Notes under the pieces: model-generated
Told to the model about the DNA's origin: nothing
Databases searched by the model: none
The model's input: the letters and a program-made list of their open reading frames with translations, nothing else
In this document: one piece after another, positions 9,343 to 16,988 of the stretch
Numbering within the stretch: position 1 is the stretch's first letter
Layout of the letters: each line of letters opens with the position of its first letter
Translations under genes and position numbers: made by a program
DNA from: Pseudomonas aeruginosa
GTDB taxonomy: Bacteria > Pseudomonadota > Gammaproteobacteria > Pseudomonadales > Pseudomonadaceae
NCBI RefSeq assembly: GCF_001457615.1
Contig: NZ_LN831024.1
Span: 2,400,001-2,432,000, forward strand
Length of the DNA: 32,000 nucleotides
Direction: 5' to 3'

Positions 9343-10695
9343 TCACAACCCCCTCTGCCGCGCCACCCCCACCATCTCCCGCTGCTCCTCCTCGCCAATC
9401 TCCTTCAACGCCACTTCCCCCACCCCCAGCGCGCGTTCCACGCTGAGTTCGCCGCCCTGGGCGGCGAGCAGGGCCTGGAGGCGTTGGAATTCGCCGCACC
9501 AGAGGGTTTCGATGTCGCGGTCGCGCTGGTTGTCGCGGTTGGCGTTGAGGGCGACGGCGCGCAGTTGCAGGCGGCCGTTGTCGGCCTTGCCGCCGACTTC
9601 CAGGCCGTAGCCGGGGGTGGCGGGTTTGCGCAGGACGACCCTGCCGGTCTGCGCCCAGGCGGTGGCCATGCCTTCGCGGACTTCGTAGCCGAGGCTGGCG
9701 AGGCCCTGGAGCACGGCCTGGCGGCGGGCGAGGGCGGCCTGTTGCTGGAGGTGGGCGGTGAGGATGGCGTTGCATCGCTCGGTGAGTTCGGCGAGTTGCT
9801 GCGGATCGCTGTCGGGCTGGCAGGCGGCGGCGCGCTGGAGCAGTTCGGCGTGTTCGGCGGCGCCCAGGGCGGCGACTTCGCTGGCGAGGTCTTGCAGGTG
9901 TTCCAGGCGCTGGCGTTGCTGCTGGTGTTCGCGGGCGGCCTGGGCGAGGTCGAGGACCAGGCTGTCGAGCAGCAGGTTGCGGCGCTCCGGGCGCTGTTCG
10001 GCTTCGGCGCGTGCCAGTCGCTCGAGGAACGCTTGGGCGCTGGCCTCGCCTTGCAGCAGTTGCAGTTCGGCGATGTGCCGGTCGATGCGCGCCAGGCGCT
10101 GTTCGTGCGGGGCGTCCTGTTGCTGGCGGGCGCGCCACTGTTCCAGGGACATGGGCGTTTCGTCGGTCTTCAGGCGTTGGGCGAGTTCGCGCTGGGCTTC
10201 GCTGAGGCGTTCTTCGGCGGGGGCGCTGGCGAGGGCGGCGAAGCCCTGGGCGAGCAGGGCTTCCGCGTCGTCGCGGAGGACGCCGTCGGCCAGCGTATGC
10301 AGGGTTTGCCGGAGTGCCGCGCTGGCGGCATCGGGCCTGGCGTCGAGGGCCTGGAGCAGGGCGCTGGCGTTTTCCTGGAGGCGGCGGTGTTGCTGGCGCG
10401 TTTCCGCGGCCTGGCGGATGGCGCGCTCTTCGCGTTCGGCGAGGTCGCGCTTGAGGAATTCGCTTTCGATCTTCACCTGTAGTTGCACGTCCAGCCAGCG
10501 TTCCTGTTCGAGCAGGGCGTGCAGGCTGGCGCGGCGGGCGTGGGCGGCGGCGCGCTCGGCGTCGCTGAGCTGGGCGAGCCGGCTGGCCTGGTTTTCCCAG
10601 CGCGCGAGGGCCTTGTCCAGGCGTTGCAGGTCGCGCTCGCAGGTGGCGATGGCTTCTTCCCGGGTGACGATTCGTACGACTTTCGGTCCGCTCAT
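9343..10695 (-). CDS. Coiled-coil protein (450 aa) with small C-terminal globular domain; fourth gene of the operon
   Basis: ATG 10695 overlaps the upstream stop as ATGA (10692-10695). The sequence MSGPKVVRIVTREEAIATCERDLQRLDKALARWENQ... is followed by ~330 aa of A/Q/E/L/R-rich helical repeats. It ends in a mixed alpha/beta-looking segment (GYEVREGMATAWAQTGRVVLRKPATPGYGLEVGG...LWCGEFQRL). Only the last 450 codons of the listed 1212-aa ORF are taken as coding. Confidence 0.7.
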   Translation of the reverse strand: MSGPKVVRIVTREEAIATCERDLQRLDKALARWENQASRLAQLSDAERAAAHARRASLHALLEQERWLDVQLQVKIESEFLKRDLAEREERAIRQAAETRQQHRRLQENASALLQALDARPDAASAALRQTLHTLADGVLRDDAEALLAQGFAALASAPAEERLSEAQRELAQRLKTDETPMSLEQWRARQQQDAPHEQRLARIDRHIAELQLLQGEASAQAFLERLARAEAEQRPERRNLLLDSLVLDLAQAAREHQQQRQRLEHLQDLASEVAALGAAEHAELLQRAAACQPDSDPQQLAELTERCNAILTAHLQQQAALARRQAVLQGLASLGYEVREGMATAWAQTGRVVLRKPATPGYGLEVGGKADNGRLQLRAVALNANRDNQRDRDIETLWCGEFQRLQALLAAQGGELSVERALGVGEVALKEIGEEEQREMVGVARQRGL

Positions 10696-16600: not shown

Positions 16601-16988
16601 GGTAGCGCTCGCGCACGCCGTCGCTGCTGGCGATCTGCCGCAGCAGACGCCAGCCGTCGATCAGGGTTTCCGTGACGGCGGGCTGCGGCGTGGCCTCGGC
16701 CTGCATCGGCAGCGGGCCTTCGGCCGGCGCGGCGCCGCACTCCAGGCACATCAGGTCGCCGGGTTGCAGCGGGTGGCCGTTGGCGCAGAGCGGGGCGGAC
16801 GCCGCTGGCGGCTCGCTGGCGGGCGGCGCGATGGCTTCCTGGGTCAGCACCGGCTGTGGTCGCCAGCCGGCGGGATGGATGGCTTCGGCGGAAAGGTCCC
16901 AGCCGCAGGGCTGGCCCTGGATCGAGCCTTCGCAGAAGATTTCCGAAAGCGAGCGTTCGCTCTGGCAGTTGGGGCAGAAACGTATCAT
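10692..16988 (-). CDS. Giant multidomain protein (2098 aa): double zinc ribbon + Ser/Thr-kinase-like (probably pseudokinase) domain + DUF4011-like region + SF1 Upf1/DNA2-like helicase + C-terminal Vsr/DUF559-like REase fold
   Basis: - Zn ribbons: CPNC...CEG...PCGW and CANGH...CLEC (aa 5-85).
- Kinase-like, aa ~108-355: HRDLRPAS, GFG, YMAPE, DWWSLG.
- GIDGLYLGFPFLL...VPLLLWPL, DUF4011-like.
- Helicase: Walker A GPPGTGKS (aa 972-979, nt ~14052-14075).
- Helicase: Walker B VIYDEASQ (aa ~1633-1640).
- Helicase: SGDEKQMPP, LQIHYRS, VQGDERDVIVFS, RRLNVAVTRARRKV.
- C-terminus: FGLDFAIE...YAIGIECDAPCH. Confidence 0.9.
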   Translation of the reverse strand: MIRFCPNCQSERSLSEIFCEGSIQGQPCGWDLSAEAIHPAGWRPQPVLTQEAIAPPASEPPAASAPLCANGHPLQPGDLMCLECGAAPAEGPLPMQAEATPQPAVTETLIDGWRLLRQIASSDGVRERYLAEHAESARQAVLTLYRPGAEPDPAIYDVIRRLPREHVPEILATGRWDERAYEVVEELTGGSLADLGTVLEDREAVRHVVRELGHALHVFNEAGLRHRDLRPASLLVRSHEPLDLVISGFGSARLSEFDLDIVSPLETSRYMAPEAIAGGVAAASDWWSLGMILLEQLTRGACFEGVNANAFLIHVLANGVALPDDLDPQLHLLLRGLLARDRHQRWQWPQVQAWLNGEAVDAPASADSEKDDAEGASIALGARRFRKPTVFALAAAQAEHWAEALDHLLRGAIVTWAEHIGLSPRLLAGLRQVAQHEGLEDDFRLMLALKLLNPEIPLIQRGEIVTPGWLLEHPLEGYRLISGSVPDLLEQLHTESWLSRLKTRAENVRQRALHQHIELAEEQLRIYLLSTSRARLAAQWQERQRLLPDTEHPGLLALAERRVIAEEDLIVLLSANIGQFRAAEAIVEEAAGLARDADVHLFDAETARGLLQHSRQELYRRVDERISGFARSGVPRVDEWAEQFRLERRMPLARVLVLLAIPPEQWLEPQKQQYVSQILDFFEKKVVAAVMRGPLVRMSIGKSTPRIDLNELDSARRPAAALLDHLLQRNARAVSLDPDSFLANPQLEVRLNALSRQSSLYKRDTGIDGLYLGFPFLLNRDPRGTTRTRIVPLLLWPLKLQLEVGSRGQVALAFDGEREEVRLNPALESLLGPEPCKRWRKVADELLGRSALRAADVMDAFGLLATPRARVLEGLPPSSTEVTPYQDQLACAAVLFHVTFMGQAIGEDLRQLKSLPPSGTGLETALRLRENGEPEARESPPELQRYFTVASDPSQEAAVLQARQSPGLLVEGPPGTGKSQTIVNMVADAIGRQRSLLIVCQKHAALEVVHKRLVAEGLGQRIVMLNDVNRDREPVIRNIREQLEALFADAGGAQGWERQRERLAARIEALEGELDRYHQSLHRVDEATGLSYRRLLGELIELEKGSPPLDFPALRQRLAALDIGSLARLEENCAPLVRLWLPARYEGSPLAQLRAFATDQATLHAFADSLRAFGEAENARQKALDEHPASFEVDDPTPYRAWLASQVGTLLHLREEQRQRLAHWLPLFRDAAPGQPSRGDGLLAEAEQIERQLRQLDLERHAPLLSPALAMLEENNLERFQAHARQVLEARTWLARLNPLRLLRRGRLRRFLREHGEADDDSRLAALLGACDLERQWQPLRRQLAALQQSLGLATVATDAGPELTGLAGHASQQLREIQTLARGLAQAPRAEQLDAVILTGEKQRFEALLGDLDAALIRQAARQLSLDKLKVLADWLGDELLEQLHRAIAGNQSNLLALGRLREALPQLVAYQRFRGRAGQLEATDLEFLALLRQRQERLDAIPAEALEATVRRMLNREARLGWKQRLEQDNPELLFSQDEARARVASLAEADVQMRALNRELLGKGIDAARLGSRKQWEDVTRLTGKRSRRLREFIELGAELGLMSLRPVWLMNPDLASRVLPLKAGLFDMVIYDEASQMPVEFALPTLYRGRVTVVSGDEKQMPPTAFFSSRVESDEAELFDGEAPDEDADEEQREAYEDTWNRREIKDCPDLLQLARNALPSTTLQIHYRSAYRELIGFSNASFYGNRLSVPVRHPQANILRIKPLELIQVNGLYQNQSNEREAERVVDYLAELWRQPYAARPSVGVVTFNRKQADLIEERLELRAEQDETFRAAYSEERERSEDGEDMGVFVKNVENVQGDERDVIVFSSTFGRNGQGSFRRNFGVLGQTGGERRLNVAVTRARRKVVMITSMPIGDISDMLGTQRSPSSPRDYLQGYLEYARALSAGEFAGTGQLLERLQTDRSDQRRQHYQRHDGFSEIVGEYIRSLGWSAAPASEGDAFGLDFAIENPATGLYAIGIECDAPCHPLLERARAREIWRPSVLRRAIPHLHRVSSQGWYHDGDNERARLRAAIEKALAPSTETHPTAAAEASQ

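Follow-up and report, generated by a model that had tools for sequence, protein, structure and literature searches.

A four-gene cassette at the edge of a Pseudomonas aeruginosa defence hotspot encodes a putative pseudokinase-helicase-nuclease effector

Type I Mokosh systems, whose anti-phage activity has been validated, contain the protein MkoA, in which a Ser/Thr kinase is joined to a COG1112/Upf1-like helicase whose ATP site is needed for defence (10.1101/2022.05.11.491447). Hhe (NCBIfam NF042953; PADLOC PDLC02194) combines a DUF4011 region, an Upf1-like superfamily 1 (SF1) helicase with a long insert and a C-terminal Vsr/DUF559-type nuclease. Two further families, ProA (NCBIfam NF058533, "anti-phage protein ProA") and the PADLOC candidate PDC-S37, are known here by their database names only; our literature search returned no primary paper on either. 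In Pseudomonas aeruginosa, Johnson et al. took as core marker for the right flank of core defense hotspot 1 (cDHS1) a "large DUF4011 gene", together with a small hypothetical gene and a radical S-adenosylmethionine (SAM) gene (PMC10250203). Here we analyse a 32,000-nucleotide (nt) stretch of the P. aeruginosa contig NZ_LN831024.1 (assembly GCF_001457615.1; positions 2,400,001 to 2,432,000 of the forward strand), referred to below as the window, and in it a gene for a 2098-amino-acid (aa) protein that corresponds to PA2727 plus PA2728 of strain PAO1. We call it gene 3, after its place in a cassette of four genes.

From the DNA letters alone, gene 3 had been predicted to encode a fusion of two Zn-ribbons, a degenerate kinase, a DUF4011-like region, a split SF1 helicase and a Vsr-like nuclease. 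The open reading frame (ORF) and each of these domain calls are supported. Pfam recovers Pkinase, DUF4011, AAA_11, AAA_12 and MTES_1575 in order from the N to the C terminus. The match of Zn_Ribbon_1 to the N terminus is weak (E-value 0.39), and the Zn-ribbons are supported instead by their conserved ligands: the sets C5/C8/C19/C28 and C68/H72/C81/C84 are kept in 112–116 of 117 full-length homologues (59–99% identity), the set used for every residue census of gene 3 below unless stated otherwise. P. aeruginosa proteins standing for thousands of member sequences share 99% identity with the gene 3 product, whose exact sequence is present on P. aeruginosa contigs. What the original prediction left unremarked, and what is the main addition of this work, is that gene 3 belongs to an operon. 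It follows a gene for an AAA+ ATPase resembling nucleotide-binding domain 2 (NBD2) of ClpB (gene 1) and a gene for a radical-SAM enzyme (gene 2), and it is followed by a gene for a coiled-coil protein (gene 4), all on one strand. No earlier description of this arrangement was found in the literature searched. We lean towards a reading in which gene 3 is the effector of the cassette, a nucleic-acid-targeting immune or surveillance complex with a pseudokinase-gated helicase-nuclease. The prediction had also held that the architecture was not characterised. This stands for the exact protein. MkoA, Hhe and the DUF4011 marker gene of cDHS1 are prior art, and because they precede it we do not describe the architecture as unprecedented.

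The kinase fold of the N-terminal domain is supported by Pkinase (PF00069), which matches aa 161–351 with 69.5 bits, above its gathering score of 31.7. A Foldseek search with an AlphaFold2 (AF2) model of the N-terminal part returned kinases only (E-value ~1e-7); the model, of aa 1–950, was built from a 16-sequence alignment and has a mean predicted local distance difference test (pLDDT) score of 58.9. The nucleotide coordinates first given for the domain (Table 1), for the HRD motif (aa 226–228, nt 16305–16313) and for GFG (aa 248–250, nt 16239–16247) proved exact. HMMER alignments to solved kinases bear out the three catalytic losses that had been noted by eye. The sequence HRDLRPAS lies opposite YRDLKPEN of RSK2 and SGFG opposite TDFG, which places S233 at the catalytic-loop Asn and G248 at the DFG Asp. 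QAVLTLY lies opposite IVALKLM of Mycobacterium tuberculosis PknE, so that T143 occupies the beta3-Lys position; the same residue aligns with the Lys of active relatives such as FILKLY. None of the canonical Lys, Asn and Asp was found at its catalytic position. In addition, SSDGVR stands opposite the glycine-rich loop GRGGMG of PknE; the AF2 model is of low confidence at the pocket.

These losses recur across the homologues. Position 143 is Thr in 115 of 117 and Lys in none; position 233 is distributed as T82/S29/A4/C2 and position 248 as G114/A2/S1. The motifs HRD, APE and DWWSLG had been reported as retained, and they are: D228 of HRD is kept in 116 of 117 homologues, as is Arg at position 230, and no homologue departs from the query at the APE Glu, DWWSLG or the alpha-I Arg. 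No other stretch of the protein reaches the average identity to the query seen for residues 251–300 of the C-lobe (94%). The domain is therefore well supported as a pseudokinase by canonical criteria and is under strong purifying selection, and the alignments support loss of the catalytic Lys, Asn and DFG Asp as a conserved family trait rather than the decay of a single protein. With its beta3 Lys, catalytic-loop Asn and Mg-binding DFG Asp gone in this clade, and its Gly-rich loop degenerate by alignment, the domain has in all likelihood ceased to transfer phosphate and serves a structural, sensing or gating role. Its earlier designation as a sensor module is one that we infer.

A wider view of the family suggests how this state arose. 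A profile-free exhaustive search with aa 1–950 returned 512 cluster representatives at E ≤ 1e-30, of which 110 cover the catalytic core and could be scored at the beta3 Lys, HRD Asp, catalytic-loop Asn and DFG Asp. All four canonical residues (K/D/N/D) are found in 13, among them the full-length 2082-aa proteins P0317 and P0326. The gene 3 pattern, with the HRD Asp alone left, occurs in 37; another 24 have none of the four residues, and the remainder are assorted intermediates. The HRD Asp is missing from 46 of the 110, and throughout this wider family no change was seen in the APE Glu, DWW or the alpha-I Arg. Metagenomic members that carry the Lys, HRDLKPAN and DF[GSN] are flanked by radical-SAM, AAA+ and gene 4 neighbours. 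Because deep-branching relatives in the same operon keep the canonical K/D/N/D motifs, an ancestrally active kinase decayed, apparently more than once, inside an already assembled four-gene system; phosphotransfer would therefore be dispensable, and the fold retained for a structural or sensing role. The kinase and helical-domain module (query residues ~105–675) is also found in active kinases with other C-termini, for example Sel1/TPR or PDZ. One operon offers a natural series from active kinase to pseudokinase, in which the role of a bacterial pseudokinase in an immune effector becomes testable.

By motif, the other half of gene 3 appears catalytically intact. Pfam places AAA_11 at aa 952–1037 and at a second stretch, and AAA_12 at aa 1721–1916. 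As predicted, Walker A (GPPGTGKS, aa 972–979) and Walker B (DEAS, aa 1636–1639) lie ~650 aa apart. The Walker A sequence GPPGTGKSQT is invariant in 117 of 117 homologues, and SF1 motifs I, II, III, V and VI are all present and invariant or nearly so. The proposed DUF559/Vsr-like nuclease was likewise supported by its Pfam match (Table 1) and by residues D2009, E2025-x-D2027 and H2031, which are invariant or kept in 116 of 117 homologues. Conservation within the protein is lowest in the helical insert that splits the helicase (conservation profile 0.39–0.56), whose sole Pfam match is at chance level (Surfac_D-trimer, E-value 0.13, 12.6 bits against a cut-off of 22). In relatives of 2400–3420 aa (P0258, P0266, P0293, P0299 and others) the insert between the AAA_11 and AAA_12 halves measures ~1200–1950 aa; in P0266 (3387 aa), for instance, AAA_11 lies at 941–1077 and AAA_12 at 3022–3214. 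The region between the kinase domain and DUF4011 (aa ~360–735) matched nothing in Pfam or PADLOC scans; its AF2 model is all helical, with pLDDT 75–94 across aa 360–670.

The cassette is compact. Spacers of 1 nt and 14 nt separate gene 1 from gene 2 and gene 2 from gene 3, and the start of gene 4 overlaps the stop of gene 3 by 4 nt (ATGA). The overlap recurs in 78 of 81 loci, and genes 3 and 4 are on this basis taken to be translationally coupled. A scan of the cassette found no terminator-like site inside it on the coding strand, and the promoter and terminator scan was otherwise uninformative; tRNA and Rfam scans gave no hits. With an N-terminal profile of gene 3 we recovered 80 genome loci (51–99% identity) from alpha-, beta- and gammaproteobacteria, spanning Pseudomonas, Xanthomonadales, Burkholderiales, Neisseriales, Rhizobiales, Sphingomonadales, Orbales and Enterobacterales. 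Wherever the contig is long enough, all four genes are there with order and orientation unchanged, and divergent metagenomic members at 37–44% identity share the order. Among 72,556 plasmid records, gene 3, its N-terminal module and the N-terminal domain of gene 1 occur in the identical 8 records; gene 4 occurs in the same 8 and in three remnants. A pattern scan found the cassette in at least 116 of 185,579 species genomes, which suggests a rare and patchy distribution.

The surroundings of the cassette change while the cassette itself does not. It lies within the flagellar gene cluster of Stenotrophomonas maltophilia (CP180589.1); in B. contaminans a phage-type integrase gene is a few kb away, and in Acidovorax the surrounding region resembles an integrative and conjugative element. 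In the S. maltophilia locus a GGDEF/EAL gene stands between fliR and the cassette, and flhB comes directly after gene 4. When the window is compared with P. paraeruginosa ATCC 9027, positions 9340–19564 alone align (98.3%) and neither flank is alignable, which suggests relocation or replacement of both neighbourhoods. Cassette identities are also incongruent with taxonomy, being higher for Burkholderiales (59–69%) than for Enterobacterales and Orbales (52–57%). Within Proteobacteria it acts as a single unit that moves horizontally.

The three partners of gene 3 differ in how far they can be assigned. In gene 1, an N-terminal domain of ~290 aa with no recognised fold is joined to one module of ClpB-NBD2 type, which has a D2-small domain. 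No variation was found among 82 homologues in Walker A, Walker B, the GYVG pore loop or sensors 1 and 2. The NCBIfam models for ClpB, ClpA and ClpV match it over the NBD2 part only and far below cut-off, and we rejected its assignment as a ClpB/Hsp100 disaggregase: such a protein has two nucleotide-binding domains and a middle domain, and here one NBD2-type module with D2-small matches (aa 281–617), scoring 253 bits against a cut-off of 1232. Two starts are on record for gene 1, and homologues align from the shorter one, MPGTALFEK.

In gene 2, the CxxxCxxC cysteines C28, C32 and C35 and the GGE motif are invariant in 83 of 83 homologues. Its identification as an NrdG equivalog was rejected (75.2 bits against an NCBIfam cut-off of 126.1), and a homologue search returned, among the matches listed, only close Pseudomonas orthologues. 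Gene 4 has a near-invariant N terminus among homologues (MSGPKVVRIVTREE). Its AF2 model (pLDDT 76.8) consists of long helices and a small alpha/beta C-terminal domain; it matched no fold in the PDB (best E-value 1.1), and the sequence matched no family above cut-off in Pfam (best DMP19, E-value 0.19, 12.8 bits against a cut-off of 25), PADLOC or NCBIfam. At aa ~110–175 the protein has many length variants within P. aeruginosa (426–458 aa), which come from short in-frame tandem duplications (ASALLQALD x2 and ARPDA x2, for example) or deletions (for example of ALAS).

The cassette is most likely an uncharacterised defence-type system. Its closest named relatives, Hhe, ProA, PDC-S37 and MkoA, are all anti-phage families. 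RNase L and Ire1 are eukaryotic nucleases gated by a kinase or pseudokinase, and the pseudokinase of RNase L is a regulatory or dimerisation module rather than a phosphotransferase. In the most likely mode of action, the Zn-ribbon and pseudokinase end of gene 3 would similarly keep the helicase-nuclease off until a trigger is recognised, after which the motor would translocate and the nuclease would cut. For the partners we infer the following roles. The AAA+ protein, with its fully conserved pore loops, would remodel or thread a protein component, which could be gene 4 with its invariant N-terminal peptide or the N terminus of gene 3. The radical-SAM enzyme would supply an obligatory radical-dependent modification or signal. 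In a bolder version that we think doubtful, these genes form a new mechanistic class of nucleic-acid-targeting immunity, fixed as a P. aeruginosa core set next to the main defence hotspot, in which the radical-SAM enzyme together with the ClpB-like unfoldase would arm or trigger the helicase-nuclease that the pseudokinase gates. Arming might then consist of a protein modification installed by radical chemistry, or the dead kinase pocket might read a nucleotide signal of radical origin.

Several observations weigh against a defence role or against this mechanism. The DUF4011 marker gene is present in all P. aeruginosa isolates (PMC10250203), which is uncommon among defence systems. The cassette was not found in phage genomes, and its occurrences in the plasmid records are confined to megaplasmids or chromids. 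At 33 diverse loci the two ORFs closest to the cassette on either side were heterogeneous and mostly housekeeping genes, with a few helicase/PLD, SNase and AbiEii-like AAA genes; the defence-island signal outside P. aeruginosa is weak. Gene 3, though related to Hhe and ProA, scores far below the cut-offs of both and was rejected as a curated member of either, and domain scans found no phospholipase D (PLD) domain in any of the four genes. The literature search found no description of the four-gene cassette and no link to phage defence or to any other phenotype. A regular-expression search of the four proteins for an RVxG[FWY]-type glycyl-radical motif gave two chance-like hits, neither in a conserved context. 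The AF2 model falls below pLDDT 50 over the catalytic segment of the kinase domain (aa 225–284) and is of low confidence there, and two retained features of that domain, D228 and R126, are compatible with atypical activity, as discussed below. HRVSSQGW at the C terminus of gene 3 was rejected as a glycyl-radical motif, its Gly being Ala in 66 of 117 homologues. Ophion, a radical-SAM defence system of P. aeruginosa, is unrelated and consists of radical-SAM, PHP and PRTase components. A preprint on RNA-phage defence mentions cDHS1, and the cassette is not involved.

The alternative that best survives, although we regard it as unlikely, is a housekeeping machine for genome maintenance or RNA surveillance (repair, replication restart, or R-loop or RNA quality control) whose adjacency to cDHS1 is incidental. 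Upf1/DNA2-like helicase-nucleases do act in repair and RNA decay, some sources label gene 3 "primosomal replication protein N", and the core status of the cassette in P. aeruginosa, its mostly housekeeping neighbours and its absence from phages and small plasmids count in favour of such a machine. Against this stand the rarity of the cassette among species genomes, its insertion in unrelated contexts, the incongruence of its identities with taxonomy and the anti-phage character of its nearest named relatives. The PAO1 reference also bears on the question: gene 3 is annotated there as two ORFs, and the split argues that the gene is dispensable. A +G difference at 3083197 is listed in other clones; this may reflect a frameshift in the laboratory strain's copy or a mistake in the reference sequence. 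Separately, a 15-bp in-frame insertion in PA2727 is reported to have arisen during chronic infection (PMC4918941).

A second alternative concerns the kinase domain alone. It might be atypical but active, either by Mg-independent or alternative-residue chemistry, as in CASK or WNK, or by a different chemistry on a kinase fold, such as AMPylation in SelO. CASK has GFG in place of DFG and no catalytic-loop Asn and is nevertheless active, and it is among the weak PDB matches of the domain; WNK kinases place their catalytic Lys at the third Gly of the glycine-rich loop, the position at which R126 sits in the PknE alignment. The near-invariant HRD Asp, in a domain that is the most conserved part of the protein, points the same way. 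Unlike CASK, however, gene 3 has also lost the beta3 Lys, with not a single Lys in the N-lobe (aa 100–200), and a 7-residue gap in the gene 3 protein faces the Glu-bearing alpha-C segment of PknE. Across the wider family the catalytic positions vary freely, to the point that some representatives keep none of the four residues and many lack the HRD Asp, which argues against a conserved alternative chemistry. We therefore judge this activity improbable and prefer a pseudokinase. Finally, it is very improbable that gene 3 works alone, as the single-gene annotation of Hhe and PDC-S37 (PADLOC, NCBIfam names) might suggest, with genes 1, 2 and 4 as linked passengers, given a four-gene order kept in every complete locus down to 37% identity, the start-stop overlap of genes 3 and 4, the invariant AAA+ and radical-SAM catalytic motifs and an N-terminal domain of gene 1 that is found nowhere else in the plasmid records.

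The defence-type reading also draws on the position of the cassette, which is fixed in P. aeruginosa at the edge of cDHS1. The window has 55% G+C from its start to ~8.7 kb and ~70% from ~9 kb onward, and the content of positions 1–8730 fits cDHS1 cargo (Table 1). The small SymE_toxin-family ORF beside the cassette is present in several P. aeruginosa contigs.

Table 1. Features of the window, with positions counted from its first nucleotide
Feature	Position	Strand	Evidence or remark
DUF2357/PDDEXK_7 (McrBC-related) protein	119..1231	+	cDHS1 cargo
Double methyltransferase with helix-turn-helix, 1369 aa	1217..5326	-	PADLOC MTase_II end to end, 3298 bits; PglX 7e-214
Weakly CoiA_N-like ORF, 393 aa	6213..7394	-	
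Insertion sequence (IS) with rve integrase	7975..8730	+	
SymE_toxin-family ORF, 74 aa	8953..9177	-	166 nt downstream of gene 4, between cassette and IS
Gene 4, coiled-coil protein, 450 aa	9343..10695	-	Translation; gene call confirmed
Gene 3, 2098-aa protein	10692..16988	-	ATG start; ORF translation
Gene 3, C-terminal DUF559/Vsr-like PD-(D/E)xK nuclease (MTES_1575), aa 1982-2078	10755..11045	-	Pfam 60.1 bits, cut-off 38.2
Gene 3, helicase Walker B (DEAS 1636-1639), motif III GDEKQMPP, domain 2A, motifs V and VI	11229..12188	-	Pfam AAA_12, 76 bits
Gene 3, helical insert of ~560 aa inside helicase, aa ~1040-1600	12189..13871	-	
Gene 3, SF1 helicase domain 1A, N-terminal part with Walker A (aa 972-979)	13878..14135	-	Pfam AAA_11 and AAA_19
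Gene 3, DUF4011 region, aa 742-831	14496..14765	-	Pfam E-value 1.8e-8, 34.9 bits, cut-off 22.2
Gene 3, helical middle region, aa ~360-735	14784..15911	-	No family assignment
Gene 3, protein-kinase-fold domain, aa 108-355	15924..16667	-	Pfam; alignments to solved kinases; Foldseek
Gene 3, two Zn-ribbon-like modules, aa 5-28 (CxxC...C...C) and aa 68-84 (C...H...CxxC)	16737..16976	-	
Gene 2, small radical-SAM enzyme, NrdG/PflA-like, 212 aa	17003..17641	-	Pfam Fer4_12, 87.6 bits
Gene 1, AAA+ ATPase, 627 aa (start 19526) or 609 aa (start 19472)	17643..19526	-	Pfam AAA_2, 152 bits, and ClpB_D2-small

Phage therapy counts P. aeruginosa, a priority pathogen, among its main targets, and every isolate of the species carries this cassette, which already serves as a hotspot landmark. 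If the cassette is a defence or surveillance system, it would constitute a species-wide, constitutive layer of immunity with unusual enzymology that couples a radical-SAM enzyme and an unfoldase to a helicase-nuclease.

Comparison with known systems suggests that gene 3 is built from two parts of different affinity. Its C-terminal ~1150 aa are probably a helicase-nuclease of the Hhe/ProA/PDC-S37 type. ProA (aa 944–2094, 517 bits against a cut-off of 1500) and PDC-S37 (aa 946–2092, E-value 1e-145) are the best-scoring named relatives of this half; their first ~640 and ~290 profile positions, respectively, are unmatched by the N-terminal 940 aa of gene 3. Hhe shares with gene 3 the DUF4011 region, the long-insert helicase and the type of nuclease, and it matches at aa 1239–2073 (NCBIfam, 320 bits against a cut-off of 2000) and aa 1594–2069 (PADLOC, 2e-61). 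The Hhe profiles match nothing N-terminal of aa 1239, so that no equivalent of the kinase fold or Zn-ribbons was detected in Hhe; moreover, the annotation of Hhe as a single-gene system contrasts with the four obligatorily linked genes of the cassette. The N-terminal ~940 aa of gene 3 are probably an MkoA-like module of kinase fold and helical domain, with two Zn-ribbons ahead of it and DUF4011 behind. The PADLOC profiles mad6 and PD-T4-6 match its kinase part, and that of MkoA matches gene 3 in three stretches (5.8e-52). As in MkoA, the kinase domain is N-terminal to a COG1112/Upf1-like helicase. Mokosh, however, is defined by a PLD nuclease partner (MkoB), whereas the nuclease of gene 3 is a fused DUF559/MTES_1575 domain. 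Unlike MkoA, gene 3 has a degenerate kinase and additional DUF4011 and Zn-ribbon modules, and its partners are an AAA+ protein, a radical-SAM enzyme and a coiled-coil protein. Gene 2 shares with the NrdG and PflA activases the Fer4_12 fold, the CxxxCxxC and GGE motifs and a small size; unlike them, it has no glycyl-radical enzyme found in its operon, and its hosts are mostly aerobes. RNase L and Ire1 offer an analogy in that a kinase or pseudokinase and a nuclease effector share one chain. They show no homology to gene 3 beyond the kinase fold, their nuclease is KEN rather than PD-(D/E)xK, and in gene 3 a helicase lies between the two domains.

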